Below are positions 98-57,551 of a DNA stretch of 64,000 nucleotides, piece after piece; the stretch's first letter is position 1, and each line of letters starts with the position of its first letter. The stretch lies in contig RSEE01000022.1 in the NCBI GenBank assembly GCA_003971905.1, positions 186,001 to 250,000 of the forward strand. The letters run 5' to 3'. This DNA is from Moniliella sp. 'wahieum'. Lineage: Eukaryota. Under the pieces are notes generated by a model that had not been told where the DNA came from, ran no database searches, and saw only the letters and a list, made by a program, of their open reading frames with translations. The position numbers and the translations under genes are program-made.

Positions 98-121
98 TCA
101 CATGTCACATGTCGCATGCCA
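98..121. repeat. TNA-palindrome 7-bp lattice (TCA CATG TCA CATG TCG CATG CCA)
   Basis: Read directly; three CATG palindromes at 7-bp spacing. Confidence 0.8.
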
Positions 122-1036
122 CGTGACGTGTATCATTGAAAGGACTCTTGTTGTCACTTTTCCCCATAACCGTTGCATCAATCGCGCGAACCACTGCGGT
201 CCCTACTACTACTAGCCCAAATGTATAGTGCTTTCATCGACTTGTGATGCATTCGTTAGCTCCTGCGACAACATGAATCAGCGGCGTAAACAGAAAACCG
301 TGGAGGACATACATCCGATTTGAAGATGGCCCGCGGGAAGATCGAGTTACAGAAGGACCTGACGCTGCCTGACTGATCGACGCGGCCATAATGCATAACA
401 GCGCCGAGCGCGAACTGCAGCAAATGCCCGACTTTAACCATAAAGTCTCGCACAGCAATCTTCCGGCCACTAGTGACTCCATTTGTTGTGACGAATGCTT
501 TTGGGATACGCTCCTCGGTGAGTTCGGTGAGTACACCGAGAAACAAAAAGGCCACACGAGGATGTGAGAACCAGAGTGCGATTGACACACGCGAGCAACT
601 AACTTTTTAGCATCAGGGCCCAGACCTTCAGGGCCAACCTAAGATGGGAGGCAGTTAGAGTCACTAAACGAGACGGCCTCCAGGGAACAACAGTCGAGAG
701 CCTAGCCCCAATTTTGTCACCATTTCTCTCTTTGCTGATACTGACTACTCTTTGTCACCGTCGCATTTCGCCCTCTACACCTGCACCAAACCTCTGATCT
801 TTCTCATTTCGAGTGTCTCGCTGCCCTTGTCGATTTCGGGATGGCCTTTGGCCGTGAACTGAATGCCATTCCTAGTGAACAATTTACTGAGTAATAACAA
901 GAATGTGGGGCGAAGGAGTAAGAGTATATATACAAGGAGAATCCACCCGTGGAAAGCGCCAAAATCGATCCCTACAATAGTCAATACCTTGGGTGTGATC
1001 AACGTGGCGGGGGCAAACTCTTATCGGACCCGACGA

Positions 1037-1053
1037 TGATCGATGAGATCTGA
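1037..1053. repeat. Mixed TNA-palindrome lattice TGA TCGA TGA GATC TGA
   Basis: Read directly; two different palindromes separated by an identical TGA. Single units also at 1264-1273 (TGA GATC TGA) and 1390-1399 (TGA GGCC TGA). Confidence 0.85.
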
Positions 1054-3195
1054 GAGGCCTCGTCTCTGTGCCTTGAGTTTGACGTAACAACTTCTCTCCG
1101 GTAATTCATTAGTTCGACCATTGTCCCGAAAAGGACGGATAGGAGGCACCCGTCGTCGCTAGCAGCTCATGCCTACAAACCAGCGGCACATGTACACCTA
1201 TATGTCAGCCCAGAACAGAAGCATCGTTAAACACTTTTTGCATTCGCAGAGGGGGACAGCAAGTGAGATCTGAGAAAACACCGTATTCTCCCCTCTCCTC
1301 CACCTCCTGTGGTACGGAGAGGAAAATCCCGTCGTAAGACTAGATGACCACCATGTCTGTATTCAACCTGATCAAGACCGGTTCATGCCTGAGGCCTGAG
1401 GACGGAGTGCCAGTAGGGCTGGCTATACCATAGGTTGTACTTTGCGCCGGTACCTCGAAACGTTTTATTGACACGACGGTTGACGCGCACAGCAATGTTA
1501 TAGACCCTCCACTCTCGTGACGTGGAGATGATAGCGTGGCTAGACAGACAGTACGCGACGCTGGCACTAGGCCACTGCTATGCCTGCGCGAGTGTGCGCC
1601 TTTTCCTATTCTCCTGTGGCATGTGAGCTCTTTCGCTCTTCTCTCCACTACCGACACCGGCTCGACTCTGTACTTGGTTCGCCTTCTCCGTGTTCGGACG
1701 GTTCGGCTCCCTAGCCCGTTCAGTCATCAGTAGGGGGAATATGAGTGCCGGCCAGTTGGTCACGGTGCTACAAACTCGAGCGGCACCCACCATTAAGAGA
1801 CTTTCCTCTCCCCTTCGTCAAGAAGACAAGCGGGCACACCACCAATGATCAACAATATACTTGAGCAGTGGACTAAAAGTCAGTCTTACACCCAAGAGTC
1901 TCGTAATACAGGTCTACCACGATTGGAAGCGAATGGCGAGAGCCAGAGGGGCGGAATCCTGACCTGCTGGCGACTCAACGATCCGCCTCCTCTTTGGTTG
2001 ATTGACACGAACTAGCAGTGGCCCGCCAAAGCCGCGAAATCATCATCGTGCACCGCCTCTCTCCCTCCATCTGTGTGCCCTTTATGAGGATGGGGGAGCG
2101 TCAGGATTTGACGTAGGCAAAGGAAAGGTGGCATGATCTACGTGGTCGGCCTGTACGTTCTTTTGTGTGAGGCATATATTCACGGTGGAGAATGGCCAAA
2201 ACATATATCGCCTACTATGCAATTTATAACCCCACACTCCTGGTACTGTTATGAGGGACTTTGGGGAGAGGGTTATCTGTTCCGTTTGAATTCCTTCTCT
2301 GTGGATAAGGGCCTGCCACACATGCCAGCTTGGCTACTTGGACTTCTCTTTACAGAGACTTCTAACGTACATTATCTCTCTGTTGTTTTTGAGAGCCTTT
2401 TTCTTTCGTCATAGGCACATATAGCTTTATAAGATGGTGGTGTAAAACCGAGAAGGAAAGTGCAGGAGTTGTGGCTAGGAATACCTACCGCATACGTGTG
2501 GCTCCCTTGGATGGACAAGGCATGATATCAAAATCGATGCTGCAGTGAAGCTGATGTGATGGCGACCAACCTCCTTCATCATCCAATCGAGGATTCCGCA
2601 TTGTTAAGAAACGCATTAAGTTGTTAGTACTGCGCGGCCCAGACGAGCGGCGCCGATGGTGGCAGATCCGTCTAATGTTCCTATGCCCAAGTCGTTGTGA
2701 TTGATCCGGGGTCCGTAAGGTGGGGAATGGGCACGTTTCTGCCTGTGATCGACAATGGAGCCATTCACCACATGGAGTTTGTCGGAAAGTGCGTGAAAGA
2801 GAAGAAGTGCGTTGGCCTGATCGTTTCCTACAGAGGCGACTCCAACGGCGAGGGGATAGACCCTCTTTCCCCCCTCCCAGGTCTCATTTTCAGAGGAGTA
2901 TTGGGCCACCATGCTGTACAATATGGGTGAGACGTGGTATATGTCCTTGGTGGGACCACAAAATGTTTCCGAGAGGCCATGCGTTCTGAACCACAAAGCA
3001 TAATCAGACTACTTGCGAGCGTTTGGTGGGAAGAAAAGGCCAGGCCGTTGGCCGCGGATTCAGATATCTCAAGCCCGAATATGTATCAACGAAGTGGGTT
3101 GGCGAGAGTGACACCAGGGGGACAAGACAACCCACAGTGTGTAGATACTAATTAAAGGATAGGATCGGTCTTGTAGGAAAGCACATGGTAATGAA

Positions 3196-3219
3196 TGAGG
3201 CCTTAGGCCTTAGGCCTTG
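3196..3219. repeat. TNA-palindrome lattice TGA GGCC TTA GGCC TTA GGCC TTG
   Basis: Read directly; related GGCC units near 4287-4316, at 4575-4588 and at 4841-4871. Confidence 0.85.
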
Positions 3220-5516
3220 GGCTCGAGGAGACATGTCAAAGAGGGGCTCATGTGGTACGCAGTATTCAGGCTGAGTCCTGAGCCTCAGGAGAGTGAGATT
3301 ATTGTTTGCGGTCGGTTGTTACATGTGTTACACTCGAACATACCGGAAGGAAAAACAAAGACACTTTTGCAGCGCTGTGTCCCACGGGTACTACTATAAC
3401 GCCCACGTAACGCGCCCATAAGTTTTCGGAACCCACGCAACGCCTCCGATTCATCATAGTTGTTTCACAGGATCTCCCGACGCGATCATTGCAAGTTATA
3501 TATTCAGGGAGCCATTCATTGCATTCACCACGCTCGTTCATTCTCTGCTTCTTTTTATAGATATTGGAAAGAAAACTGGAAAGAAAGGTCGCCTAATAGA
3601 TGACATAGATTATCGCGGTAATTACGTAGTTACTGTAAGAATCGGGCGATACGAGTGAGACCAAATACCAAGGGAAGCCAAAGATGCAGTGGTAGGAGAA
3701 GGGAGAACAGGATCGGCGGGGAGAGCAGTGAGACAAAGATTCCCCTGATTAGCTAAGAGGACCGTGCAGTTACTCACTTATCTGTCCCCAAAGCCAGTAT
3801 AGGGACGAGTTGGCAGTAACAACTAGCAAAGATCCACACTGCGGTGTTATCATTGCCACACCAGCCCTAATTGCCCTCTTTACTGAATACCGCCAATATC
3901 GCCCCAACCCCGGTTTCGCTTCGGGTCGGATCCGCCGTCTGCGTACTTGAATAGTACTGTTTTTTGTCGTGAGCCGCTCGTTTCCTCTGAGGGTACCCTC
4001 AGCAATATAAGAATGTGGCTCTATATAGGAGCGCGTTCGTCACTGTCATGAACCCTCTGTGGTGATGACATGCACAGGCCGGTTCGCCGACAAAAGATCC
4101 AGCCAGCTATATGTGTCGAAGGAAAAGAGAGTTGATATATGGTCACGGGATAAAGAAAAAACCCAAGAGGAGGTGAACCAGAACAGGCGATTAAACCATT
4201 ATTGTGACTCACTTACAGGGGGACGTAGCCGCCGAGTGAGGGACGTTTCGAGTGTTACCTCCTTGTGATGCTTATGGTTTTGTATAGGCCTCAGGCCTGC
4301 CTCAGGCCGGCCTCAGGTCTGATTTCAAGGCGATATGCCACATGCCAACTATCATTATCAAGGCGATGGGATCATAACGAACCGTGGTTTTTTTTACATG
4401 TTCATGCCAGTGTTTAAAACGTGTCATGAGGGACAGGAATAGGCCACGGCCATGTGGACTTGCAGTGTTGCACAACGCTGCTGCATATAATCCTCTCAGC
4501 AACACACGCAATGCAGGTCTCGTGGGTAGGCATGCACCACCGGGAAATGATCCATACTATGTTGCCCCTCATCCTGAGGCCTGAGGCCCGATACCTGATG
4601 CCTGATCCTGATGATTGATTCCTTGATATGAGGGCCTGAAGGGTTAATTATTCCTCCAATCGACGAGGCCGAAGTCTGATAGTCCAGGCTGGGGTCGATG
4701 AGGTTGATGGGCGATGAAGCCTCTGGATCTGAGGGATCAGATGCGTGAGAAGGGTTGTCGTAACTTGTGATATGATACGTTCATTGGATGACTGGACCGT
4801 AGACACCTGTAGATGAGACTTTTTGTGGGCGGTTTGGCCCTCAGGCCTCAGGGGCCTCCTGAGGCCTCAGGTGCTGCACGCAATGCAGCGTCAGCAGCGG
4901 GTTTGAACACCCAGGTTTCACCCGTTTTTGTTTGAGTGAAAAATGCGGTGTGGCAAGCAGGTGTGGCGAGGGATGCACCTACCTGATGCACTGATGCAGG
5001 CACCGCAAGTATTATTAGGGGCTCCGCTTGTGGGGCTACATGAGACGTTCAGTTTTAGCGGTTACCGGCTACTAGAACCGGGTATACCATTCGCTGGCGG
5101 TATTACGTTTGTGTGAACTGTGGAGACTCTCTCCGCCGATAGTCGCTTCTCTGTGGTCATTGAATACTGACCCCACACACTTGACATTTGTTTGTTCGTG
5201 AGATGATGTCGAGGATGTTGACGAGAATTTGTGACCAGTACGGATACCGTCGCTTCCGCCTTCGGCTTCTGCTTTCCATCCGAAGTTGGCAGTGTATATA
5301 ACGTAACGTGCAACCCATATGTGGCGCTGGCCACACTATGTATGGTTCACGGCGAGACTGCGCGGTGTGGCTCTCGAGGCCTATGAAATTCGAGAGGATG
5401 TTGTCCTGTGGACTCAGCCTGAGCGAAGAGTCGCCCGCGCATAGCGCTTAGCCTGGGGGCGCACAAATGATTCGGCACAGATTATGTTCGGATCGGTGCG
5501 CGTTATGCGCGTTGCG

Positions 5517-6272
5517 TTACGCGTTACGCGTTGCTAGCGCCTAGCGTTTTATACTCGAGTTGGCCGTTGGACGTGTTTCGCCTGTCTCCGTCACACACAC
5601 CTTCAGAATTGCATCCCTTCTCCGCAGGCACATATTTGCCACATTCACCGACTGCCGCCATGATGCATGATGCATGGTGTGGCGTCTGTATCGTGGGTCG
5701 CTTTGCTCCGCAGGAGCTCAGGCGTGACACATCCAGGCCCTCCGCTGGTGGTCGCGCACAAGAGCACCGCGCCAAGCTTTGAGCTTGAAGCTTGAACGTT
5801 TAGAATGTGCTGAACGTACCGAACTTTTAACGTTTTTTTATGGTTAAACGTTAAACGTTAAACGTCAACGCGTCACGCGTCAACGTTGAACGTTGATTGA
5901 GTACATCGAACATTGATGATCGGATGAGCTCCTAGCGATGATATACTGATTTGCCACAGAAATGTTTCGGTCGTGGTAAGGGCCCAAGACCCAAGGGTTG
6001 GACGTTGGTGCTCCGCGGAGAAGTGTCTAGCCGTTAACCAAACTCCTGCCCATAAGACCACTACTCCTTTCGAAGCCGAGCGTCTGCCGAGTGCATCCGC
6101 ACTGTTGCGTCCTCAGGACTTGTTGTAAAGCTTAGGTCTGCAGAGCGCTGGCCTGATGCCTGACGGGCGACTATGGCAGCTGCTTTGGCGCGCTATGTGG
6201 AGTCAGATCTCAGAAGTCAGTTCTCAGACGTTCAACAAGCTTCAAGCTTCAAGCTTCAAGCTTCAAGCTCCA
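5517..6272. repeat. Dense cluster of TNA-palindrome lattices (CGCG, TGCA, AGCT, ACGT, GATC)
   Basis: 5517-5533 TTA CGCG TTA CGCG TTG; 5661-5674 TGA TGCA TGA TGCA; 5772-5802 AGCT x3 then ACGT; 5845-5896 seven palindromes in register; 6203-6226 TCA lattice; 6235-6272 AGCT x5 at 7-bp spacing with TCA spacers. Confidence 0.9.
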
Positions 6273-6687: not shown

Positions 6688-7665
6688 TTACATGTTACAT
6701 GGGCCTGGTGCTGCCCTCGGTATTAGCGTGAGTACTGAGTGGCGTTGCGAGGGCCAGGAGGGTTCCATGTTGCGTGGTTGCATGTTGCATGTTACAAGGG
6801 TACGGATATACTGATGGTACCGATGGTGGTAACCAGTTACCTCATGCTGGCGTATCGCAACTGTCCGTGGATCATACATCGCCCAACGCACCCAGGACGC
6901 TGAGCGAACGCTCCGGTTCGCGGCTTAGCGGCTCAGCGCGACTGGGACTGCTGGAGCGGAGCTGGCCACGATGCGGTCTGCCAGCCGGGCTTCGTTGGCC
7001 TCGCTTGCGGCTGCCGCCCTGCCGAACGAGCGCTTCTTCGGCGCTCAGACGCCCTCAGGCCTCACGCGTCAAGCTTCATCTTGGATTCTAGGCCGGGGGT
7101 GGCAAGGCACGGCAGCGCAGTGCAGGGTGCAGCTGCCCCATCATGCATCACACACCCCATGTCACACATAGCCCCAGACCACCCTGCCCCGGGCACACGT
7201 GCATGCAGGCGCGCCTTGGCCGCTGCCACGACCGGCTACTGCCCCCGTGGGGTGCGGGCTTAAGCGTGCAACCCTACCTCCCTGCCCCCGTGCCGACAGA
7301 AAGCGTCCCCCAACGGCGTGGCAGCCAGCCGTCCCCGACACAGGGCCAGTGGCGGACGGGGGGGAGCGGCCTAACGCGAGTGCTGTATCATGCGCCACGG
7401 GGGAAGCGTCCGCAACCACGCCGTCGGGGCACAGGGCCGTGTGGCTATGTCCGCTTCCGTGCCTCCGCCCCCTCGGATCTGAGTCTCAGACCACAGGCTG
7501 AGGCCAACTGAGCGCTGAGGCGCTCACGCCTCGGCCTGAGGCCACCTCTCCCGCCTCCCGCCTCACCCGTCACCGCGGCCGGACCGGCGCAGGCCACCAC
7601 ACAAAAACGGGACGGGTTCATATATACCCCTCAGGCCTCACGCGTTCGCTTCCTCTCAGATCTCA
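6688..7665. promoter_or_regulatory. Upstream region of the zinc-finger TF with a TATA-like element (~7619-7626) and multiple TNA-palindrome units
   Basis: Units at 6688, 6729, 7055-7078 (GGCC/CGCG/AGCT), 7141, 7509, 7631 and 7656; TATATA about 110 bp upstream of ATG 7735, followed by a pyrimidine-rich leader. Confidence 0.55.
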
Positions 7666-7734
7666 CGCCTTTTATTCCCTCTCCGGCGCAGTCTTGCTTC
7701 TCCCACCACTTTCACTCTTCCCCCTCCCCCCGCC

Positions 7735-9522: not shown

Positions 9523-11160
9523 GCCGACCGCTTCTCCTCTTCCCCCCCTCTGGTTGCCACCGTGAATGGTGGCGTTCGAGAGGCGAGCGTGTGGGAAGAT
9601 GGGACGATACCCTGCCTCTTTTCTCTTTCTCTTTCTCCGTTTGTTTCCTTTTCCTCCTCCTCCTCTCCTCCTCTTCCCCCTCCTTCCGGTTGGTTCCTGA
9701 CTCCTCTCCCTCTTGTGAGCCGGAACCGGTTTGACCTTGTTTGTGGTCTAAGTTATTGTCTTTTCGGTCTTGTCGCCCCCACATCAGTATGGTTATGTTT
9801 CCCTCCTCGCTCTATAACTCACAGACTGTTGCGTGGGTTTACTGGCCTCCTCGGATGCGATCCCCTCGACTGGGACTTGCACATATATTGCTGCACACTC
9901 CATGTTATACGAAGAGGAGATGGATCGATGAGGGAGGGAGGAAGGAATCAGACTGAGATGCTCGGGGGGTAATAAAACCTCGCAGTAGGTAGTAGAGACT
10001 TGGACCAGACTAAGCTGAGCGCTGAGCGCGGATCGCCTGAGCGTTTCTTCTTGACCCGTTAACGCGTTAACCGTCATTTGCAATCACTCGGCTGACTATA
10101 GAGTATGAACTCCCCTGTACAAGGGCTCGCGGTGATCCATACCTCTGATGCTTTGGGGGGGGGAACTCTGAGGTAAAAGAGCGGACAAATGGATCTCTGC
10201 AGTGGCTCCCGCTCTTTCCATCGTATACGGAAAGATGGAAGTCCAACTGCGTAGAGATCAGTATACTGTTGGTGATTTGCGAGGTATAGTAGCGTTTGGC
10301 GTAACACTTGAGATGGGATGTGGACCCCACAACTGCAGGGACTCAGGGACGAGAGGAAGTCACCAGACAGGTGCGTTTTGGAGGGCTACATGCAAAACAA
10401 GAGAAGATCCGTCCACATCTCTGGAACGTATACAGGGGTGAGGCCTGGGGGGGACATCAAGTTGTCTCTGTGCTCGAGCAAGCTAATTCGAGAAACGAAT
10501 GAAGCATACCCAACCTCCTGCCATTGTTACGGGGCGCTCAGGTTTATCTCCCTCGGAGCCCCGTAGTCGTAGACACCTCATCCAAAACATGCGTCAGTCC
10601 CCTAGACTAGCGAGAGGGAGCCGGCGGATACCTTTCCTTGCTGCGCATGATATTGTCCGCAGCCTGCCATGTGGCCGCAAGGGCTCATCGGTACGATGCT
10701 GTGTGCCCATCGCGCCCAGACTTGGTCGAACCCTTGCTACTGGGCCCGATTGCGTAGCGTCAGCGCCTTTGAGAGCGCGGGCTGTGTAGTCTTTCCCTCT
10801 CTGGAAAGATCCCCACGTTTGCTTATACCTGTCTGAGGTATATAAGCAGCCATTGTCTAAGGATGTGGTCCTTATCGACATCCTGTCCCTGTTCACATGT
10901 TCGCCCTGTTACCTCTATTCCACCTTCTACCAGCCTCACAATTCCAACCTACGTCGACTACGCATGGTTACTCCTCAGTAGCGCCTGCTCTTCATTAGAT
11001 TCCGACTGATTTCGCCTCCGCTATCAGTACGTCGAGTGTGGTAACGCCACCGGGAAAGCGCGTTACCCCACAGAGCTCCTGGATGCCTTCAGCTGTCTGA
11101 CGACCTACGTACGCAGCTCTTACTTCGGAGGTCTAACCTGCGGCCTTTGCCCGTTCGTTC

Positions 11161-11736
11161 TCAGATCTCACCCCAGGCCTTGGGGCTGGATCCATATTTC
11201 GCGAGCCCCCCATCCCCTCTGTAACAATGCGCCCGACCTCCCTCTGACACTGCAGCAGAACACCCATCGTAGCGCAAGGATACCATGCTGAACTCGTATG
11301 ATACCCAACACCGCGCAGCCGTCGCGTGGTCTTGTAGTCACGCGTCACGCGGCCACGGGTTACGCCCTCCGGCGTCACTTGACCGCTTGAGCCCCAAGCT
11401 TGAGCCCCTTCAGCTTCAAGCTTCAAGCATCAAATGAGGCTTCGAGTCAAGCTTCAGGGGGATGGCGCCTCCCGCAGGCTTCACGAAAGACATTACGTGT
11501 CGACGTTCGGCGTGCAGAGTACGGAATACATTACGTGTCGACGTTCGGGCGTGGACAGGCGGGGGCTCTGGGACGGTGGCTGGAACGACGCGTGACGAGG
11601 GCGATGCGTGATTGGTGATCTTTGGCACGGCGAGTGGCCCCGGCTGGCTGGGCGCGGGCTGGGCTCCGCGCTGACGCAGCACGAGGGCAGTTGCGGCGGG
11701 CGATGGCGGCTTGGCAGCGGGCGATGTGAGATCTGA
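11161..11736. repeat. TNA-palindrome units upstream of the Sec14-like gene
   Basis: 11161 TCA GATC TCA; 11338 TCA CGCG TCA CGCG; 11416 and 11447 TCA AGCT TCA; 11727 TGA GATC TGA. Confidence 0.8.
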
Positions 11737-14441: not shown

Positions 14442-14788
14442 TCACATGTCACATGTCACATGTGGCTGTCACATGCCCTGACAGACATCCCATCACGTGC
14501 CACATCACATGTCGCATGGGGGCATGTCACCTGTCACCCGGTATCAACATACCAGCGCATCCCACACGCTCACCCGCCCGGCCTCTCGGCCTCGGCTGCT
14601 CTCCTCGCCCGCATCCAAGGATAGCACAAACGCCAGGCACCAGCCCCGCACCGCACCTGTGTGTGCGCAGCCGCCGCGGGGGCTGCCTGGCGCATGTCAC
14701 ACACGTCACAGCGCCATGCCATGCATGCCACCGCATGCATCCCACATCCCACATCATGCATCCCACATCACACATCCCACATCCCACG
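14442..14788. repeat. (TCA CATG)n lattice and degenerate 7-mer (TCC CACA / TCA TGCA) array upstream of adenylate cyclase
   Basis: 14442-14462 TCA CATG x3; 14733-14788 eight 7-bp units in register. Confidence 0.8.
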
Positions 14789-15254
14789 CGGGCCCCCAGG
14801 CGCAGTGTGAGCTTCGCACGGGCGGTGGCGGGGTGCTGCTGCTGCATGCTGCATGCTGGGGGCTGGCCTGGGGCGGACCCGCACCGCCTGCACGCACGCT
14901 GCACCCCGCAGCCGCTGGGCGATGCATGGGGCGGGTGCTCCCGTGCGCGTGTCACGTGGCGTGCGTGGGCGCTGCTACACCCCCCGCAGCCACGCGCGCC
15001 GGCTGGGCTGCGGCGCTGCTCCCGCCTGCTGGGTGCCCAGCCTGGGCGCCCGCCCCGCTGCTGCGCCGCCACCTGCGATGCGTCAGCGTCACCGCCACCC
15101 CATCGGAGCACGCCGTCACGCGTCACAGCAGGCCGCCATGCAGGAGCAGCAGCCTGCCGGGCACCGCGCGGCACCCCCCCACCCCACCCCACCCCACCTT
15201 GCCCCACCCACACCTCCTGCCTGCTGCGCCTCCATCCTGCTCCGCCGCGCCCCC

Positions 15255-23544: not shown

Positions 23545-23683
23545 TTGAGCGCGCAAGATCTGGCCTGAACGCGCTGGTGCGACGGGCACGCTGCCGAGGC
23601 GAGGGGGGGATGAGGGGCTGGTGGAAGGCGAGAGATGTGGGGTTCTACTAGCTATGGGAGCCGCAGAAGGCTGTTTGGTTCCA

Positions 23684-30496: not shown

Positions 30497-31120
30497 TGGA
30501 TGGAGCGCGGAAATGGTGGGCAAGAGGGAAGGAGGGAGCACGGGGCGGCGAATAGGCTCTATGGTGCCCCCTTAGGAACATGACTTATCCATCGTGATGT
30601 GTGCCAGATGCTCTCTTCTCTCTCTGTATGAACCCCGCGTGGTAATTATTAGCTCCACCAGCCCAGCTACTTACGCCCTCATTGCGCCACATGTGAAAGT
30701 TTCCACTTTCTCGCCCCTCGCCGCCCTCTCCCCTTTTGAATTCAAAGAATTTGCAGGGCTTCAACCACCATCGGGACCATAACTACCACTAGAACCGCTT
30801 CTATGACTTGCTCATCTATCATGATCGAGCTCGGCTCCGGTGTGTGTGTGTGGTACTATTAGCTACGACTCTGTGGGTGCAACATCAAAATATTGAGTCG
30901 AAGCGTGTTGGCCCTATTAGGGAAGAGAGAAAAGACAGTAGCAGGAGATAAAAGCAAACACGGCCCGAGAGCACGAGGGATGGCGCACGCGCGAGTCCAA
31001 TTAAAGTATGATACTACTAGTAAGGTGACCTGGTGCCCGCGTACCAGAGGGTCCCGTTAAGGAAGCCATCATATATTTTCACGTCAGAAAACATCACAGA
31101 TACCCCCGCCGATGAGAGAT

Positions 31121-34720: not shown

Positions 34721-35706
34721 GCTGAGGAAGCGGCGGGACGAACGAATCGAAAGGAGAGAGGGCTGAGAGGGGAGAGGCGATAGGGGGAATGAGCTGGGGG
34801 ATATGATTGTGTAGAGAGTGCTTGGGGAAGGCATATATATAAGGTGAATCCACTGCATGCAACAGGGTGTAGCCTCGTGCAGGGCTCTCGTTCTACTCTC
34901 CGTACAACTAAAAAGCAGAGGAAGGTGCATGCCTCCGTGTGTCGCAGTGACCTCCTGCTATCGGGTATGCCCGCCCTCAACGTTCAACAGGGGGTGTGGG
35001 ATCTTCGCCAGGTCCCAAACGATAGAGAGTGCTCCCCAAGCCAACACACAGCGCGGGTGGCCGTATTCAGGTGCTAATGAACAGCACATGTGTTAGTGGG
35101 GGTCGCACAGAGCTCCGCAATAGCGTATTATTCTATTCGAAGAGAGCTTCCCTCCTAAGCAATGTGGGGCCCCTTCTGTGCCTCCACAAAAGTTGCGCTC
35201 CTGTATAGGTGCAGACACAGCCAGGTAGTCAATGCCACATGTATAGGCCAGAGGGAACCGCTAATAGCGGACGAGGGCGAAGGGGAAAAAAGGTGTGTGC
35301 TGTGCGAGTTCGCCCGCAAATGAGGCACAGAGCACGCCGATGTGAGAGGTGATACTATGTGATGATGATAAGATAAGATGAAACCTACTCTGCCTTATTG
35401 GCTACTCTGCCTTACAGCACCAACGTGCGATTGAAATCTAGAGCACAAGGGAAGAGGAGGCTGCTCAATGATTTCGCAGCTATAGTACGTTCCTATTACA
35501 CCGGTCAAAAGCCGAACTCAAGCTCCAATTGGCAACCTTCTCGAGCTCATTGCGGCCAGTGTATTGCCCTCGGCCCACGCACGTGCCAGAGGCATACGCT
35601 GTTGGTCGCACCAACGCGCTCGAACTGACTGTACTGATCAATCCGCTGTGGGTTTTTGAAGAGTACTCCATCCGCGTCACGCACCCCACACCCACGCTAT
35701 AGGTGT

Positions 35707-35728
35707 TCAACGTTCAACTGAACGTTCA
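35707..35728. repeat. ACGT lattice TCA ACGT TCA ac TGA ACGT TCA
   Basis: Read directly; a related inverted copy lies at 53502-53530. Confidence 0.8.
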
Positions 35729-37504
35729 ATATACTGCGTGTGGACATGTGCATGGAATGTGTGTGATGCGTGGCAATATACAAACGATGGATATAATGCC
35801 CTACACCCACGGTAATCTCTACTCTTCCGCGTCGCTCAGGGCTGCTCAGGCCTCTAACCACCTCGACCCAATCGGTGGCAAAAACAACAGCAAAATGCGC
35901 ATGCAGCTCATGCACTGGCGATTGCACATTCCACCCTTTGCCCCCCTGCTCTGATCCCACCCTTTGCCCCTTCTTCTCCCGATTCCCACGCAGCATTCTG
36001 TTTTGTGAAGAATCTCATTCAATACCGGCTACTCCCCGTCCAATATATCCACAAAATCACCTTGTCGGGGGTTTTAATAACCGTGCGTTTATACTGCGTT
36101 TTTGATGAAACGTCTGTTGATGGAAAGGTGATTTTCCTTCAAGGGTTATGCTGTACGTGGCGCTCGGGAAGTTTTTATTCCTGGACACAGTCCTGTATGC
36201 CGTTTTGGCATCTATTCTAAACACACTTCTCAGTCCCGTTCGACTATCGAGAGAGAGCCTGCGGACACGTCCATGGCGGAGATATCATCCGCGGCCCGCG
36301 CCATGATTGCTTGGGCTCATCGGTGCGATGCTTTGTGCTCATCGCGCCAGCCTTGGCAGAACCTACTGTTACCTGCTAGAAAATTCCCCAAATTATGTTT
36401 ATATACCTGTGTATGAGGTGCATGAGGCACTTGAGGCTCTTTCCATCTGAATATGTTAAGTATAGCCTCTATTAGGGCTCGCTTGTTGCGGTGGCCTTAT
36501 CGAACATCCCGTTACGCCTCTTCTGTTACACCTGCTGCAGCACCTGTTCACCTTATTACATCTGTTCCTGTTCCAACCTTTCCCTACATCTCTCCCCCCC
36601 TTCCACCTTATAGCCAGGATTACTCTCACAAAATACTAAGCGCGTTTGATCTTCATTACGACTCCGTCTGATTCCGCCTATTACAGCGCGTGAGTGTGTG
36701 GTAACGCCCCTGGTCGTCTTACTACGCAGAGTTCCTGGACCCTTTCAACTGGTCTGAAGACGACCTACGTATGCTACTCCTACCTCGGAGGGTCTGACCT
36801 TTGCACGCAGACACAGCCACCCAAACTAGAGGGTCTCTCCTCGCATCTGCACCGCTCGGTTCGACCAGGATCTGAGGCCGGACATGCCTTAGGCCTTACG
36901 TGGCTCGATTGGCTGTCCAACGTTTTGCATGCCTAAACGACAGGTGTGGGTTCCACCTCCCGGGGTTGAATGATGCATCGCTCGCTATACTGTGTGGACC
37001 ACACAACAGGGGCGTTGGAGGATCACGGATGGGGCTTGGAGGTGGAACGTGCGGACCACACAGGTAATGTGAGGAACTCGGATAGAAACAGAGGTTGCGC
37101 ATAACCCGAAGGGGATACATGAGGAGGTTACAACATCTGCGGAACGCGGGGAGAAGGAGCTGCATCGACTGTTGCATTTTATTGGAGAGCACAATATTGA
37201 ACCGGAATGCGACAAAAGCAAACGCCAATGGTCATTAATTGACCGCCCGATGATCATCATCGCATATCGTCATCGTCCATCGACATCGTCTTCGCTACCC
37301 CACCTTTTGCGTCAATATACCTCGCCGCCCACACCCTACGACACGCCTGCCCTTCAAGCTTTTAGCATACAGCTATGCAGTGTCTCTCCGCCTTTTTGAT
37401 ACGCGCGCGGTGGCCGCGGCTGCGACGACCCAAAGATGGCGGCGAGTCTTACTGACGGACGACGGAACTGGGGGTAGTACGTGGTGGCCATATAGCGAAG
37501 CTAG

Positions 37505-37608
37505 TGAAGCTTGAAGCTTGAAGTTGCCTAGTCGCCAGGCCACTCGCCCAGCCTTGTCACATGTCACACGGCCGAATAGAGTTCCAGGTGCGGCAGGTTT
37601 ATCGATTA
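37505..37608. repeat. TNA-palindrome units upstream of GYP7
   Basis: 37505 TGA AGCT TGA AGCT TGA; 37557 TCA CATG TCA; 37599 TTA TCGA TTA. Confidence 0.8.
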
Positions 37609-41952: not shown

Positions 41953-42621
41953 CGAGCGTCTCTTATTGTGCGCCCCTGCCCCCCTCCCCACCTCGCGTCT
42001 TCTCCCTCCTTCCCCTTCCCATACTGTCTTGGGTACGCCTTCACGATCGCTGTTTTCGCACCCGCCATACCCCTACCCGACGCTCCTTGTTGTCCTCATC
42101 TGTGCTCCTTTGTTTCCCCTACTACGTCTCTTTCCCCTTTTACCCCCCTCCCTTTTTCCCCCTGCCCCTGATAGTCCCTTCCCTCGCCCCGCTGCTACTC
42201 CAAGGCTGCTTCATGTTTGCCTGTCTTGATTTTTGTATAAATACGACCTGTCCACCTTCTTTACGTGTTCCAACTGGCGCGGGCGGAGCCTCCTACTGTG
42301 CATAAGCGAAACGTACGTGTCGCTCTAAACAAGTTTTGCTCTAAAGTCTAGGCTCAAAAAGAGCGAAGTAGTGGAAAACATGGCTGATGCAATGGGCAGG
42401 CCGATAGTCAGTGGTTAGTCGAATGACGGGGGGGATGGTATGGTTACTAAACGAGACCGCACGGGAAATCCCAGATGATGGCATAGTTGATATATGATTT
42501 ACATGGAAGGTTTTGTTTGGCTGGGCATGGTGTGGGCGCCCTCCATGGATGAATAAACAGTTGACGAACAATTCATACTGAGGGTTACACTCAGGAGACA
42601 GATGGGGGGCTATGTACAATT

Positions 42622-43656: not shown

Positions 43657-43764
43657 CGCGTAACGTTAAACGTTAAACGCCCTAAATATTAAATCTCGCT
43701 AAAGTGCTTGTCCCGCGAATCGTCCTTGAAGCTTGAAGCTTGAAGCTTGAAGCTTGAAGTTTCA
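43657..43764. repeat. TNA-palindrome lattices in the URA3 promoter
   Basis: ACGT TAA ACGT TAA (43663-43676); TAA ATAT TAA (43683-43692); (TGA AGCT)x4 TGA AGTT TCA (43727-43764). Confidence 0.9.
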
Positions 43765-44111: not shown

Positions 44112-44283
44112 GTGTCACAGCCGGGGCTAGGGTGAGGGAGACCAAAATCGGGACTAGGCCAATAACCCTAAGGGGAAGAAGCAAGAGCAGAGAACATGGT
44201 GCGAGGTGGAAGAAACAGGGAAGGAGCGAGACGCTCGAGACGAAGAAATTGGACATGGGAGCGAGATCAGTCAAACGATGACA
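44112..44283 (+). repeat. Diverged dispersed repeat, paralogous to 55778-55983
   Basis: Collinear shared blocks GTGTCACAGYCRGGGCTA, CGGGACYAGGCCAA, GGGGAAGAAGCAAGA, GAAGAAATTGGAMATGGGAGCGAGATCA and CAAACGATGACA. Confidence 0.8.
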
Positions 44284-45545
44284 GTTGGGGCTGCCCTACA
44301 CGCCTACTCGAAGATCTCTGCCGCTGATGCTCTTGGGGATCCAGTGTGGACCCCCGTTTGGTATGACACTAGATGACTCTATAGTAGACCTATTTGGGTC
44401 ACACTATCGGCCTGGCTCACCGGCCCCGTCCTCCCATTGGCCCTCTGCTGAAGGAGGAGTGGAATGGAGGATGTGGTTCTGAGGAAGATACAGGAGGCTA
44501 TGAGAAGTAGGGCCTTATATAGCCGAGGGTACCGCGGAGCTGAGAGCGTCCGGGCTGATAAGAGGAGTGATGCCTGTCATATATCACGCAGAATGATGTG
44601 ATTGGGGCATCGCCCCGACACCATCCGCGGGAGCTGGACACAGACAACAGTTACAGAGAATGAGAGGGAAGGGCGTTGCCTGGCAGGTTAACGGTGGATT
44701 GACAAGGATGTTGTACAAGGACGAAAGATGAGAGGAAGAGGCAAATGTGGACGAAGACGAAATAGGTAAAAGCCCGCTAGGGGGAAAGGAGAATGGGTCA
44801 AAGGTTATACAGACAGTATCTATGTTGTATAGGGGATAGACAACACCATGAAGAAAGGAGAAATTAATCGAGATTGGTGGCTCCCACAGAAAAGGAGCAC
44901 AGGCCACCAAGTATTAGGGAAATGGTCCCACATTCGGTCAGGCGGGAAATGAGAAAGGCGCCAGGAGAGAATCTCACTGCGAGAGAACGAGGAAGTGTGC
45001 AGATCACAGGAAACTGAAGTCCACAGATCCACGCGAGACGGGCAACCCGGGTTTGGAAAGAAAGTGGAAGAGACGACTTTTGACGGGGAATCGGACCCAC
45101 CATCTTCGGTATTGTAGCCACGGATTTGCTTCTGGCCAACACTGCACTATATTGAGCCTGGATGGAGTGTCAATAGGGGAAGATTAACCATATATATTGA
45201 TTGACCTCCAACGATCAGGAGGCTCAACTTTTGAAGCTCACTTGCATCCACGACCAAAGACCAAACATAAAACGATGGGAACATGCTCCGTTTAGACAAA
45301 CGGAGTGCATGGGTTTGCTTTCAACATTCAGACAAGCCAACCTAGTCTTGACGTAGTACGTAGGCCCATAATGCATAATCGATAATCCAGGCAAGGCAGG
45401 GAATGGGAGGGGACGGGCTCGGCCACCTCGGCCGCCTCGGCCATTGCCTGGGACATGTGCACGTGTCATGTGACAGAAGCCACTGGCTACGCCTGTGTGG
45501 CATGCGACGCGTGACGTATAGACGAGAAGCCGCGCGGCCGGAAGA

Positions 45546-46286
45546 CGATCGATGATCGATGGATCAATATTGAGATGCAGGCCGCGGCCTAGCGCGGACG
45601 GAGGTCTAGTAGGGCAGAGTGAGAGCCTACCGGACCTAATTTGTTGACCAGTGCCGGTGATTCCGGTGACTAGTGACTCGTGACTAGTGACTAGCTAGTG
45701 ACTAGTGACTGGTAACTAGGTGAACGGTGACCCTGTGTCGAAGGTTGCGTGGTTGAACGTTGCACGTAACTGAGCGGACTGAACCAGTGTTCATCGAGCA
45801 GATCTGATAGAAAAATGGGAAACGAAGGGCGATCGCCAGCATATGTCCGGCGGACATTACTGAGAGGGCGTTAGTTTTCAGTACTTCGGCCGGGGGTGCT
45901 TCTCAGCAGTAGCACACTGCCCTGGTGCCTCTGGCCAAGACCAACTGCGGTAACTAAAACTAGTACCTAGTAGGTCGTTACCTTAGGGTTAGGTCTGCTA
46001 TTAGATCTTCACGCTTCAACCAACTAGTCTCTGGTCGCCGTCACGCGTCACGCCTGAGGCTGAGGAGGATGCCGCGGCTTTTGAGATCTGAGATTGGCCG
46101 GGTGCTCGCTATCCACACACCAAACTCCGGACCCCGTCTTCAAGCCCGCGGCCGAAAACTAGCAGCAAAGCAGCAAAACCCTAGGCCCGGTGTTGAAGAA
46201 ACGCGACGCTCTGCCACGCTCTCACTGTGTGACATGAGTAATCGAATCGAGAATCATTAATCGATAGTCATCGAAGTCATCGATCA
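45546..46286. repeat. TNA-palindrome lattice cluster upstream of the ABC transporter
   Basis: TCGA units 45546-45559; (TGA CTAG)n 45667-45719; TCA CGCG TCA 46041; TGA GATC TGA 46082; TCA TCGA TCA 46277. Confidence 0.85.
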
Positions 46287-51062: not shown

Positions 51063-53501
51063 GATGACTCTATCTTTTGCTTTTCCCCTCCTTCGTCTTG
51101 ATCTGCTTTCCCTCTTATTCCCTTTGACTACTTCACATTCTCCTACTATCTCTCTCTCCTTTAATAAACTATGGCACACTATAATGTGCCCCTCCGTGCC
51201 ATTTGATGTCGTGTTACTACTGCATAAGTGTACTAGCATAAAACTCTGTTGGTTAAGGACGCTTCTCCGGTGTTGCTTCACTGGGTCTCTAACACTCCGC
51301 GTCGCGTTCATCATCGCATTCGTGTGCCGTCTGCTGGGCACATATTCCACATTCAGTTCATTTCATGGCTTTTCGTGGAGCAGCATAAAATGTTGCCGAT
51401 AATTCGACGGTTAGCTTCCTCCCATACCGGGTCTGCCATTATACTATTACCTGTGTGAGTTTTGTGGTGCCGTGGAACAGGGTATTCTCCGACGAGCAAT
51501 CTACAGGAGAGGGGCCAGTCGGTCGAGCACAGAGAGCGGGATTGAGGGTACGAGTGAAGCGAAATGCGGAGCGGTAGTGGAGAGGCAGAGCACCAACTGC
51601 AGAGAAAGAGGACAGGAAAGGCGGGCGCGCGCGCGCAGCGCGAGCTAGCATGAGTATGAACGGGCCTTTGTGCCCTAGAGTCATGGCACCAGCCTAGGCT
51701 ATCTATATCACCCCGACGTCACAACAGTGTCACTAGTTCACTCTGCCAGTAGCCCTGTGGCTGGTCACCGGTCACCTGGTCGCGTCTATGCATGTCACGC
51801 GCCAACATCGAGATCATCCACAATCATCCATCATCCAGCCGATAGCAGGTGCAGGTTCCCGCTTCCACGTCTGTTCGCACCGAGCCTTCCTCCAAGAAAA
51901 ACTAGTACCACCACCCCTCAGTCCAAGCCATGTTGGTGGCGTTCACGTCCTTCAATATGCGCCACTTCCCCATGTTGGCCGAGCGGGAGATCGTGGAATG
52001 GCTTCTGTTCCAGGTCAAAGCGCTAGCGGGGGTCCATTCCCGCATGCCAAGGCCGAGGTGAAGCAAGTGGAGCACCTTTGGGGGCAGAATTCCCTTCTTC
52101 TTGGTATCTCTTCCCCTGTTGAGGGCGATGGCTAGACGGTGGTCATTACTGGCGCTCACTAGGGCTCGGCCCACATGATTCTTCTCTTTGCCCCCCCCTG
52201 GGATAGGCGATGAGATGGTTCGGGTACAGCCACTAGCATCTTGAAGGAGCTACGTGTGCTGTTGACACCGGCTTGGGTGTTCAAGGGGGAGTAAGATGTG
52301 GTGTGGCACTGGTACTCTTCTGAACAAAAGGCGGGTTTCTAGGTGGCGGGGGAGAAAATGTGGTGAGGGTGGACCTTCGTCAAGGCGGCTCAGTCGGGCT
52401 TTGGCTGCAATAGGTGTGACGGCCATGCCAAGCTCCCCGGGTCGAATGGGTAGGTGGGTCTCGAACCGGACTGGACGGGTTTTTGGAACGCCTGACTGGC
52501 ACGTACCCCACCGCCACCCCTTGGGGGGTAGATCCAACTGTATCGGATACGCAGGATCAGACCTTGGGTCCTGTGCACGCCTCAACGGATACTGGCGACG
52601 TTTGGGATTGGATGTCTGTTTGCAGATTCTAACATTCATGCCCCGTTCACACCAAGGAGGGCCTAACCATCATCGATGGCTGTGCCTGGGACCACCTAAA
52701 GCAGTTTGTTCGCCTGTCCACTGCATTCATGGTGAGGCGCTAGCAGACCAGAAGTATGCAACGAGTCTGCAGCGGTATTTCTTTTGAACTGAGGAAGTAG
52801 AGAAAAGTGGAGGGAAAGAGAAGGAAAGAGACAAAGTGGATTTTGGGGGGGGGGGCGCTTGGAGCGGTCTAGTCGGTCCCATCAGGGTAAATACGCATGC
52901 CGATGCGCTGGATGCAGTTCCGGCAGTATCGCCCCTGAGGTTTGTAGGCATACGTCAATACGCTTGACGGCGCCCGACATTCGGGCCGCTGGCATCTGGG
53001 AAGTGTGGAGCTCTGGACGTGAGTTGGCAATGCGCTCCTCTAGATGGGGCGACTGGACGGAGGACGTACCGCAAGCACAATGGCAGACGAATGGCACATC
53101 CCGCTGTCAAGCGCAATGGGCATGGTGGTAGCCGGAAAAACGTGGAAGGGCTATAGGGAGTATGACACCAAGAAGATGTGTCCGCCATGCGTTGGCGGGC
53201 AGCAAACAACATGGGGCTTATCCAGCTATCACAGGCCCTGGGATAGTGCCAACTCGAATTGAGTGGTGTTGTTTGACGTGCTTCCTTCGATGGCAGGCGC
53301 CGTTCGATACGGAAGCTTATATTTTGGGTCCGCTGGCACACCGTGGGAGCCGCCCAGTTCGCACATAGCATAAACTCAAAAAATCCGCCCACAAAGCGCA
53401 GCGCCCTGCGCGCCTACGCCCCGCTCCTGCTCCCATTTTCACTCATCCTGCTATCCGCCGGATATCGAGATGGGGTCAAACGAGGGCAAACCTATGCTTA
53501 T

Positions 53502-53530
53502 TCAACGTTCAGTTGAACTTTGAACGTTGA
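53502..53530. repeat. ACGT lattice TCA ACGT TCA gt TGA ACTT TGA ACGT TGA
   Basis: Read directly. Confidence 0.8.
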
Positions 53531-55101: not shown

Positions 55102-55172
55102 TCAGGCCTCAGGGTCTGCTCAATATACCTCAGGCCTGAGAATGGCCTCAATCCTCACTAGCTCACTAGTCA
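55102..55172. repeat. TNA-palindrome units in the STM1 promoter / tRNA downstream interval
   Basis: TCA GGCC TCA 55102; TCA GGCC TGA 55130; TCA CTAG TCA 55163. Confidence 0.8.
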
Positions 55173-55452: not shown

Positions 55453-55453
55453 G

Positions 55454-55541
55454 TTCCCCGACCGGGAGTCGAACCCGGGTCTTGACGGTTCCCCACAATG
55501 GAAATGAGAGCGTCACATCATAGCCGTTGGACCATCGAGGA
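55454..55541 (-). tRNA. tRNA-Glu (anticodon CTC) with a 16-nt canonical intron
   Basis: Minus strand TCCTCGA-TGGTCCAACGGCTATGATG-TGACG-CT-CTC-A-[TTTCCATTGTGGGGAA]-C-CGTCA-AGAC-CCGGG-TTCGACT-CCCGG-TCGGGGA-A; acceptor, anticodon and T stems pair; intron after position 37. Confidence 0.95.
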
Positions 55542-55777
55542 TTGAATGTTTGAAACGCATTGACAAAGTAAGTGCGCAGTAGTTGACTGGTGATTAGTTA
55601 TTTGTTTCGTAGCGTAACTTTTCTTAACAAAAAGTGGCTCAGGCAACTAAGCCGATACTTTGTGAGCATCTATGTTACAGCAAACCCCTACGACGTTGGG
55701 AAAACTTAGTAGGTGTTACCACACCCCTCTGTGGTGGCAAATATACACCAAACCGCGCATCCATGTATAGTAACCGC

Positions 55778-56864
55778 GTGTCACAGTCAGGGCTATATGA
55801 AGGCGAGGGAGAGACGGGACCAGGCCAAAAAGAAATGTGGCAATCGTTCGTACAGAAGAAGCACGCGGTGGGGAAGAAGCAAGAAAGAGAAGATAGTGCG
55901 AAGCAGAGCCGCAGGAAAGGCGCGGGAGCCTCGTGATGAGAAGAAATTGGAAATGGGAGCGAGATCACAGCCAAACGATGACATCCTGTGCCGGAACACG
56001 TCCCCATCCCTTCTCAACGGTTTCCATCCCAGCCCAATGCAGTAGCGATAGGCTGGCAGTCGACCTGGGTGCAGTATCCGATGAAAAATTTAGTTTTCCA
56101 GCAATGCCCACAGGGAGGTGAGGGTGCAGGGGGAAGGAACCGCCAATACCAAAAGGCCAATTGGACAGGTGAACTTGCCATCGTACCCCCGAGACATCGC
56201 CCGCCCCGGCGACGGCACCGAAGACGCTCTGCTAGAGACGCTAAAGAGACTGGCGACCTGGTCCAAGTACCTGTTGGCAAGACGTGGTTCCAACGTGGCT
56301 GGAACCGTGCGTTCCGTCACGGAAGTACCAAGGACAAGATTACTTTGTTATCAGTGCCGTGCTCATTATTCCTGGCGTATATTTGACAGTCGCGGGTAGT
56401 GACTTGACCGTAGTGGCGACGAAGAACGATGTGGCGGCGGGCAAGGGAATCCTTTCTCGTGCCAAGACAATAGCGTCTAATTATGAACTCTTTTCCGCCT
56501 TCAGTCACCGGCGACCCAGGACGGCCAACAAGATGTTTGAGCACCGGAAAAGTCTTACTGAGAGGAGTCTCATAAGGGATGGTTCATTGCTCACACGTCG
56601 TGTCTATACCACGCACGTGTCCACCGCGCTCATTCACACCCACTCGCGCTGCATCCAGCTCCCTCACACTCTTATTCACGTCTGCGGCATCAGAGTGAGC
56701 TGACTACATTGGCACATGCTCTGCCTGAACACCTCCATCGCAACAACGGTTTCCGTTCCAGTCCAATACAATAGAACAAGGATGTGGCAGCCGACCTGTG
56801 GATGAATTAACCACCGGGGGGGCTGTTACCAGTGACTAGAAAGAAAGTCCTGCTCAACTTGAAT
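55778..56864 (+). repeat. Mosaic of diverged copies of neighbouring loci (44.1-44.3 kb segment and the 3' end of the forkhead gene)
   Basis: 55778-55983 ~ 44112-44283; 55982-56242 ~ 59881-60110; 56661-56798 ~ 59823-59962; 56818-56864 ~ 60704-60749. Confidence 0.8.
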
Positions 56865-57551
56865 GAGTTGATTCTCCGCGGTATGATGTTCAGCATGCTT
56901 GTGCCAGTCCCCGCATAACATGTTTGCTATATATGCACCACAGGCTATATACACGGCAGCAGTAGGCTAATATCATTATAGAGAGGCTGTGGGCCTTTGT
57001 GATCAGAGAGCCACAGCAGGACGGCTCGTGCGTTTGGCCCAAAATGTCTTCGGTCACTAGCTCATACAGTCTCAGATCTCACAGCAAACCATTCATTGCG
57101 GCAGAGGATGTGTGCTGGAGGCACATGAGTGGGAGGATGTGTCTCAAAAATGGGACTGGCTATCCCAACAGGTCAACTGGTACAAAAATGAGACAAATCG
57201 CATGCATCACACCTACTGATATTCCAATGGGGCCCCGCCTATCGATCGCCTATCATACATGCATCATGCATCGCACATCGACAATCCGCGCACGCACTGC
57301 CCCCATGCCGCCGCCCCACTAGCCCAACTGGCCGCACGGCGTCACTGTGTGCGCCTAAAGTACGCTCGCATGCCAGGCACTGGCGCTGTGCCCAGGCGGG
57401 CCCAGCAGTGCTCCGAGGGCACCCGAGCCTCGACCACGCCCGCTCCCTGGCCGCATAAAAGGCCTGCACACCACCATTTGGCCCTCTTCTTTCTCCCACC
57501 ACCGCCTGCCCTCATCCCTTCGACGCCGGCAAACGACACACAGCATCTGCA

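Follow-up and report, generated by a model that had tools for sequence, protein, structure and literature searches.

Passages of PMC5499845 describe how hAT, Transib, RAG and the Mutator-like Muta1 leave the flanking DNA with hairpin ends, which are opened by host enzymes, and how end joining leaves footprints. For Muta1, the same passages give a hairpin of 43+43 nucleotides (nt), i.e., the cut is exactly at the boundary (PMC5499845). In the part of PMC5873905 on Ac/Ds in Candida, the footprints were all short deletions or palindromic P-nucleotide insertions, and two types predominated. Going by these portions of the two papers, a target-site duplication together with a P-nucleotide footprint is the textbook result of the excision of a transposon that forms hairpins on its flanks (PMC5499845, PMC5873905). 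Here we describe micro-repeats with a similar structure in a 64-kb window of the basidiomycete Moniliella sp. 'wahieum' (the whole stretch that was analysed, positions 186,001 to 250,000 of contig RSEE01000022.1). Each unit consists of a TNA triplet, a 4-bp palindrome and the same TNA triplet, and at most loci the palindrome takes its sequence from the bases just outside the unit.

The units resemble the footprints of Ac/Ds, Hermes, Muta1 and Transib and the V(D)J/RAG coding joints in that the target duplication persists to either side of the joint. They also resemble these footprints, as far as the portions above describe them, in the short inverted copies of the break-adjacent bases at the joint and in having few predominant outcomes. 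In contrast to these footprints, the units have a 7-bp duplication with a TNA core and even palindromes, which are nearly always 2+2 nt, and their total length is conserved. The 8-bp duplication of hAT elements has the consensus nTnnnnAn. The hAT superfamily proper does not fit as the source, since the period is 7 and not 8, the palindromes are even, and odd quasi-palindromic spacers of 3 and 5 bp are hardly raised. Families of hAT with 7-bp duplications are said to exist in Repbase in a passage of PMC4455052.

A sequence-only reading of the same window had stated that it knew no described system of this form. However, footprints made of a duplication and P nucleotides are known from the portions cited above (PMC5499845, PMC5873905), and numerous 10-bp repeats in Ustilago maydis have been proposed as footprints of transposable elements (TEs) in a passage of PMC4081816, citing Laurie et al. 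(2012) and Schirawski et al. (2010). Compared by that description only, the units are like the U. maydis repeats in their length (3+4+3), in being numerous and intergenic, and in the setting of a TE-poor smut-type basidiomycete, while the host of the window shares only about 55–60% identity with Ustilago and its relatives in two proteins. The sequence of the U. maydis repeats was not in the searched supplements of PMC4081816. That the two are the same phenomenon is thus a lead from descriptions, although a likely one. The literature searched contained no paper describing a flank-templated TNA-palindrome grammar, and six unit sequences searched in the literature gave only primer lists.

Number and specificity of the units

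The TNA-palindrome-TNA units are real and strongly non-random. An exact scan for T-N-A, a 4-bp palindrome and the same T-N-A found 68 units in the window, and 20 dinucleotide-preserving shuffles contained 0–5 units (mean 2.25). The excess that the sequence-only reading had claimed from a hand count of about 60 was therefore confirmed, and all 25 coordinates that it had named were recovered by the scan. It had claimed thirteen palindromes, but 14 of the 16 possible ones are present, TATA included, and only AATT and TTAA are absent. When merged, the units form 56 loci, of which 48 hold one unit and eight are chains (five with two units, two with three and one with four).

Both the triplet and the spacer are specific. 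With a palindromic 4-bp spacer, there were 68 units with TNA flanks and at most 10 for each other XNY class, and several of the non-TNA matches are TNA arrays read out of phase. Non-palindromic spacers and spacers of 3 and 5 bp had been proposed as controls in the sequence-only reading, and they support its claim. TNA-N4-TNA with a non-palindromic spacer occurred only 40 times, despite 15-fold more such 4-mers. Among palindromic or quasi-palindromic spacers of 1–7 bp, spacer 4 was the sole outlier (68 vs 2.0 expected), with 16 vs 8.5 expected for spacer 3 and 5 vs 2.0 expected for spacer 5. The N was shared by the two triplets of a pair in 68 cases and differed between them in 10 (a complementary N in seven of the 10), which indicates that the TNA triplet is copied directly and not inverted.

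Tandem identity at period 7 was raised in the window as a whole. Runs of at least 5 bases occurred 161 times vs 53.8 in shuffles (threefold), and runs of at least 7 bases occurred 42 times vs 3.8 (elevenfold). The coding periods 3, 6, 9 and 12 alone matched period 7 in enrichment. Imperfect units were also in excess, both those with one broken palindrome pair (23 vs 13.0 expected) and those with one mismatch in the second triplet (46 vs 22.0 expected), indicating that older, mutated copies of the units exist.

Templating of the palindrome by the flanking bases

The rule given by the sequence-only reading, a TNA, a palindrome and the same TNA, is correct but incomplete, because it missed the two flanking bases that template the palindrome. 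The period-7 identity mostly extends exactly 2 bases further on one or both sides (left at 20 of the 56 loci and right at 20 of the 56, with a chance of about 1/16). We wrote each site as ab-TNA-[P]-TNA-cd and scored a match when P equals cd+d'c' or b'a'+ab. By this test, the palindrome is templated by the dinucleotide flanking a TNA at 49 of the 56 loci, where about 12% would match by chance. When the flanking dinucleotide was taken 1–6 nt further out, only 6–11 of the 56 loci matched. Both flanks matched at 19 loci, the right flank only at 17, the left flank only at 13, and neither at seven. The left-only and right-only counts are nearly equal, which fits a strand-symmetric process. The sequence of the palindrome is dictated by host bases beside one TNA. 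Thus, the true unit is a 7-bp duplication, ab-TNA-cd, with 2 P-type nucleotides at the junction.

The possible joints were counted in a model in which a 7-bp duplication (ab-TNA-cd / ab-TNA-cd) loses 0–2 bases or gains 1–2 inverted (P) bases at each inner end, and every fitting TNA...TNA pair was taken in. The case in which the left end gains 2 P bases and the right end loses 2 (ab lost) was found 44 times vs 0.2 expected, and the mirror case was found 40 times vs 0.2 expected. The remaining model cells of equal length arise where sites with palindromic flanks can be read in another way. In two cases both P pairs were kept (4300–4317 and 45686–45703, 0.0 expected). These two 18-bp scars fit a 7-bp duplication at every base, and neither a 3-bp nor a 5-bp duplication could yield them. 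A P pair with one retained base was found three times (2+1, about 0.1 expected), while a non-palindromic nnTNAnn 7-mer was perfectly duplicated in a single case, at 14525. Since there is only one perfect duplication and only spacer 4 is enriched, the outcome is stereotyped. Two of the three hetero-chains, those at 1037 and 45369, are fully accounted for by two successive events, the first using the left flank and the second the right flank.

The flank dependence bears on a possible source in elements with short duplications. Tc1/mariner and PIF/Harbinger-type footprints also have a short T/A-anchored duplication on either side of a few extra bases, but there the extra bases are derived from the element and are constant in a family, while in the window the host flank serves as their template. 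PIF/Harbinger elements typically make a T-A-rich duplication of 3 bp. An element with a TNA duplication (PIF/Harbinger- or CACTA-like) that leaves 2 nt of each inverted terminus, in the style of Tc1/mariner, would yield TNA-xy-y'x'-TNA directly, and it would also cover hetero-chains on one TNA, e.g., that at 7055. However, bases derived from an element would not show a dependence on the flank, so the 49 of 56 loci that match, vs about 12% by chance, largely refute this origin. Moreover, the 14 palindromes are fairly evenly spread and would require 14 or more families, and no element with terminal inverted repeats (TIRs) and a TNA duplication was found in the window. We therefore consider such terminal-nucleotide footprints very improbable.

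Chains of identical 7-bp units also resemble heptanucleotide microsatellites, which could arise if chance quasi-palindromic heptamers (e.g., CTTCAAG) are expanded by replication slippage. Chains of 2–4 units are present at eight of the 56 loci. A metagenome search with a 24-nt AGCT array from the window found (TCAAGCT) arrays of at least 3 copies in at least 120 metagenome stretches, on contigs of very different G+C (30–70%) that include contigs of 0.7–1.8 Mb. In the 674.5 kb around the at least 120 listed arrays, there were 39 non-AGCT units vs 40.4 expected, and thus such arrays can exist without the wider grammar. Flank templating was seen in 18 of the 39 units, above the chance of about 12%; this may reflect generic tandem duplication, and no inference was drawn from it. 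One metagenome locus (L038, 1–20024) that had appeared to be enriched was rejected, since it is made up of a tandem repeat of about 5.6 kb, in which sets of open reading frames (ORFs) recur and the units are copies of one another, and about three independent loci remain. As far as seen, the heptamer array alone is widespread, while the full grammar is a property of this genome.

Unlike microsatellites, most of the loci in the window are single events with an inverted dinucleotide. The 48 single units amount to only about 1.4–2 copies of a 7-bp repeat, and 30 of the 56 loci are one-flank matches, in which a 5-base direct repeat is combined with an inverted dinucleotide, a structure beyond slippage. 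Three hetero-chains carry different palindromes on one TNA register, and 14 palindromes occur in all. Furthermore, isolated 7-bp palindromes of the form xyTNAy'x' are at expectation (181 vs 172.4), so there is no pool of seeds for slippage. The eight homo- or hetero-chains may have been lengthened by slippage, but an origin of the units as ordinary microsatellites is quite improbable.

Two other models were also rejected. A 5-bp symmetric duplication predicts TNA, a 2-bp palindrome and TNA, which was not enriched (7 vs 8.5 expected). Fold-back or template-switch synthesis predicts a complementary N in the second triplet, which was seen 7 times vs 68 times for the same N.

Possible origin of the units

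The units are very likely mutational scars of some duplication-plus-hairpin process and not functional sites, and they are probably the excision footprints of a cut-and-paste element that forms hairpins and duplicates a 7-bp nnTNAnn target. Such an element would insert with a target-site duplication ab-TNA-cd, in which T and A would be preferred at positions 3 and 5. On excision, the transposase would close both flanking ends covalently into hairpins, precisely at the boundary of the element, and a host nuclease would open each hairpin 2 nt off the tip. The opened hairpins would carry self-complementary 4-nt overhangs (left flank, cd-d'c'; right flank, b'a'-ab), and these would be sealed in register, each strand with its own palindrome. 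Replication or mismatch repair would then fix one of the two palindromes in each daughter, and the product would be ab-TNA-[cd d'c']-TNA-cd or ab-TNA-[b'a' ab]-TNA-cd, with period 7. After one event, one TNA would sit in a palindromic 7-mer. Re-insertion into this 7-mer, or slippage, could add an identical unit and give a chain, while use of the other flank would give a different unit.

A 2-nt opening of the hairpins and sealing in register would explain why the spacer is fixed at 4 and the period at 7, why the left and right classes are nearly equal in size, and why other lengths are rare. Artemis-type nucleases open hairpins 2 nt off the tip, and ligase IV ligates non-cohesive overhangs. The latter activity is also mentioned in a passage of PMC5873905. 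We infer the hairpin intermediate, the 2-nt offset and the in-register sealing from the form of the scars, as well as the existence of the element and its superfamily. The likeliest candidate for the source is a Mutator-like, a Transib/RAG-like or an atypical hAT element. In the described portion of PMC5873905, the complement of the bordering base forms the centre of Ac/Ds scars, while the palindromes of the window are even, and thus a typical hAT element does not fit. An exact-boundary cutter, either Mutator-like or Transib/RAG-like, fits better.

Several observations weigh against an origin by excision. To our knowledge, the footprints that nonhomologous end joining leaves behind known elements are more varied than the near-single outcome here, and the Ac/Ds scars just mentioned are likewise far more varied than those of the window (PMC5873905, in part). 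To reach a density of about 3 scars per kb of promoter DNA, an element would have had to go through extraordinarily many cycles of insertion and excision. Matches to both flanks at 19 of the 56 loci are far above the roughly 1/16 expected for non-palindromic targets. About ten of these 19 loci resemble decayed chains (extensions of at least 4), and the remaining nine or so need a preference for palindromic 7-mers or an easier sealing of cohesive overhangs. At the hetero-chain at 7055, the present flanks account for the first palindrome only. Finally, a donor was not seen. We scanned for TIRs of 11–14 nt with at most 2 mismatches beside a duplication of TNA, nnTNAnn, TNAnn/nnTNA, any 7-mer or any 8-mer. 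In the 64-kb window, these scans gave only chance-level matches or array self-matches and no intact element, and in metagenome loci amounting to 687.6 kb, array self-matches were the only TIR-bearing segments found. No Pfam transposase family was found among the 125 window ORFs of at least 150 amino acids.

The missing donor is one of the points in favor of a process of the host itself, with no mobile element involved. Some nuclease, e.g., a hairpin-forming transposase that has been domesticated, could make 7-bp staggered breaks at nnTNAnn in open promoter chromatin, and fill-in together with hairpin/P-nucleotide repair could then form the unit. This process would account for the same structural evidence as the excision of an element, and the very high, promoter-biased density of the scars would also suit it. 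However, integration and subsequent excision normally produce a target duplication together with hairpinned ends, and we know of no nuclease that yields both. Moreover, the window is small, and the absence of an element from only 64 kb is weak evidence against one. We regard a purely host-driven process as rather improbable.

A bolder form of the excision reading is that the scars are written by an as yet undescribed transposase system of the hairpin-forming type, which cycles in and out of promoters frequently. It would have a 7-bp target of the form nnTNAnn, make its hairpins exactly at the boundary (RAG/Transib- or Mutator-like), and perhaps be domesticated or of very low copy number. This is unlikely on balance, although it deserves some weight. 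If it is true, promoters in this basidiomycete lineage would owe their indel variation mainly to the system, at about 3 scars per kb, and the near-invariant 2+2-nt outcome would report an unusual register-preserving joining of opened hairpins.

The kind of scar is already known, while its density here is unusually high, and the interest of the units lies in their density, their stereotypy and the search image that they provide. If they are excision footprints, roughly one in thirty promoter-side bases of the window would be transposon scar, with no transposon in sight. The scars would be a countable fossil record of insertion-excision cycles, and each scar would be a 7-bp indel in regulatory DNA. 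The form of the scar would serve as a search image for the unseen element, which should duplicate 7 bp around a TNA core and form flanking hairpins that are opened 2 nt off the tip. For annotation, such micro-repeats would be neither binding sites nor usual microsatellite markers. If the U. maydis 10-bp repeats prove to be identical, these repeats would also have a mechanistic explanation.

Genomic setting and individual loci

Nearly all of the units are non-coding. Outside the Pfam-supported ORF intervals there were 67 of the 68 units (2.0 per kb vs 0.03 per kb inside), in agreement with the non-coding placement claimed by the sequence-only reading. The start of the adenylate cyclase interval was set at 15200, so the units at 14442, 14449 and 15116, just upstream, count as outside, although they could be coding. 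The stretch with these three units has 70% G+C and is open in all three forward frames, and its long frame encodes an implausible protein with no family matches. Spacers with at least one gene 5' end, i.e., those that contain promoters, had 62 units in 21.0 kb (about 3 per kb), and convergent 3'/3' spacers had five units in 12.6 kb; these classes come from a rough gene map, in which the 7.5-kb spacer at 23.7–31.1 kb may hide genes. A non-coding and promoter-side location is expected of 7-bp scars, which shift the reading frame, and of promoter-seeking DNA transposons. An assembly or sequencing artefact would not avoid coding DNA in this way, and neither the flank-templating rule nor the mutated derivatives would be expected of it, so we give an artefact hardly any credence.

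The concentration in promoter-containing spacers could also point to a cis-regulatory lattice, in which a dimeric protein reads the symmetry of palindromic 6- or 7-mers spaced 7 bp apart. The sequence-only reading had offered such a protein, or else a recurrent cut-and-repair process, to explain the units. The occurrence of the 18-nt string CCCTCAGGCCTCACGCGT at both 7052 and 7628 is a further point in favor of the lattice. However, there are 14 palindrome types, with no motif that constrains their sequence, and the palindrome is dictated by the neighboring bases. Isolated palindromes outside units occur 205 times vs 173.4 for the 6-bp form A....T and 181 times vs 172.4 for xyTNAy'x'. Since the duplicated form alone is in excess, a symmetry-reading protein is not supported. 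In addition, a spacing of 7 bp would put successive sites on different faces of the helix, and decayed copies are common. A functional lattice is thus highly improbable. The cut-and-repair alternative of the sequence-only reading is, in its essentials, supported by the data, with flank templating at 49 of the 56 loci vs 6–11 in the control and the same N in 68 pairs vs a different N in 10.

In Pfam scans, the long window ORFs proved to be genes that are usual for a fungus. Among them are those for a C2H2 and a CRAL-TRIO protein, an adenylate cyclase (with LRR, PP2C and cyclase domains), a P-type ATPase, a RabGAP, an OMP decarboxylase, a PDR-type ABC transporter, a HABP4-like protein, a kinase and a forkhead protein. 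The nearest named relatives of the ATPase are from Tilletiaria, Testicularia and Ustilago species (55–59% identity), and those of the OMP decarboxylase are from mixed basidiomycetes (about 60% identity). By these matches, the host is a basidiomycete that probably belongs to Ustilaginomycotina, and the collection searched contained no closely related sequenced species.

Except for the 18-bp scar at 4300–4317 and the perfect duplication at 14525–14538, the loci given below come from the exact unit scan, with the templating side from the flank-match test, and the strand of all of them is given as ".". Left-templated single units are TAA-TGCA-TAA at 389–398, TGA-AGCT-TGA at 5786–5795, TCA-CGCG-TCA at 5873–5882 and 15116–15125, TGA-ACGT-TGA at 5887–5896, TCA-TGCA-TCA at 7141–7150, TCA-GGCC-TCA at 7631–7640, TCA-GATC-TCA at 7656–7665, 11161–11170 and 57072–57081, TTA-ATAT-TTA at 26333–26342, and TTA-GGCC-TTA at 36889–36898.

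Right-templated units are TCA-CATG-TCA at 98–107 (a single unit), TGA-GATC-TGA at 1264–1273, 11727–11736 and 46082–46091, TCA-GATC-TCA at 6203–6212, TTA-CATG-TTA at 6688–6697, TGA-GTAC-TGA at 6729–6738, TCA-CGCG-TCA at 11338–11347, TCA-ACGT-TCA at 34977–34986, TAA-ATAT-TAA at 43683–43692, TCA-GGCC-TCA at 55102–55111 and TCA-CTAG-TCA at 55163–55172. TCA-TCGA-TCA at 46277–46286, also right-templated, is the sole unit within a Pfam-supported stop-to-stop ORF interval and lies in its first 20 bases. Two chains of two are right-templated as well, TCA-CATG-TCA-CATG-TCA at 14442–14458, within the 70% G+C stretch, and (TGA-AGCT)x2-TGA at 37505–37521.

Both flanks match at TGA-GGCC-TGA (1390–1399 and 4575–4584), TCA-GGCC-TCA (4841–4850), TTA-CGCG-TTA (5517–5526), TGA-TGCA-TGA (5661–5670), TGA-GCGC-TGA (10016–10025), TCA-AGCT-TCA (11416–11425), TCA-ACGT-TCA (35707–35716), TCA-CATG-TCA (37557–37566), TAA-ACGT-TAA (43667–43676), TCA-CGCG-TCA (46041–46050) and TCA-CCGG-TCA (51765–51774). 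They also match at TTA-GGCC-TTA (3203–3212), where GGCC extends further on either side and the locus is a decayed chain. No flank match was found for TGA-GCGC-TGA at 7509–7518, TCA-AGCT-TCA at 11447–11456, TTA-TCGA-TTA at 37599–37608, and two units that are possibly due to chance, TGA-TATA-TGA at 42488–42497 and TCA-TATA-TCA at 44577–44586. At 53502–53530, TCA-ACGT-TCA (TCAACGTTCA) and TGA-ACGT-TGA (TGAACGTTGA) are inverted and 19 bp apart, and neither is flank-templated.

Chains of one repeated unit are TAA-ACGT-TAA-ACGT-TAA at 5845–5861 (two units), (TCA-AGCT)x3-TCA at 6242–6265 (three units) and (TGA-AGCT)x4-TGA at 43727–43757, which is the longest chain with four units. In the hetero-chain TGA-TCGA-TGA-GATC-TGA at 1037–1053 (two units), the first palindrome comes from the left flank GA and the second from the right flank GA. 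In TAA-TGCA-TAA-TCGA-TAA at 45369–45385, TGCA comes from the left flank CA and TCGA from the right flank TC. The hetero-chain at 7055–7078 has three units, TCA-GGCC-TCA-CGCG-TCA-AGCT-TCA. Three TGA-CTAG-TGA units (45667, 45681 and 45699) are clustered at 45667–45708, and this cluster includes the 18-bp scar AG-TGA-CTAG-CTAG-TGA-CT at 45686–45703, in which both P-nucleotide pairs are kept. The other 18-bp scar, CC-TCA-GGCC-GGCC-TCA-GG at 4300–4317, consists of the 7-bp duplication and 2 P nucleotides of each flank. TGTCACC-TGTCACC at 14525–14538 is the sole perfect 14-bp duplication of a non-palindromic nnTNAnn 7-mer, i.e., a scar without P nucleotides.

The string CCCTCAGGCCTCACGCGT, which comprises two units on one TCA register, is found at 7052–7069 and 7628–7645, 576 bp apart and upstream of the C2H2 gene. 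It may be a small duplication, two parallel series of scars or a real regulatory element. The 7.5-kb spacer between the adenylate cyclase and the P-type ATPase (23651–31123) has a single unit and contains long ORFs without a Pfam match, and it may hold unrecognised genes.

The window also contains other repeats. A paralogous stretch of about 0.6 kb with about 74% identity is present in two separate intergenic regions (10594–11139 and 36230–36800), and it is perhaps a dispersed repeat of some age or a promoter module that the two regions share. A dispersed repeat family at 55995–56242, 56671–56813 and 59837–60110 (71–79% identity) flanks the kinase gene. No TIRs, target duplications or 7-bp indels coinciding with a unit were found in the aligned repeats (10.5–11.2 vs 36.1–36.9 kb, and 55.9/56.6/59.8 kb), and no clear ends were found for the 55.9/56.6/59.8-kb family or for a second module, which is common to 55870–55983 and 44172–44283. 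Upstream of the adenylate cyclase ORFs, period-7 arrays without TNA (e.g., CATCCCA and TGCTGCA units) are present at 14720–14870 in DNA of 70% G+C, and they are outside the grammar of the units.

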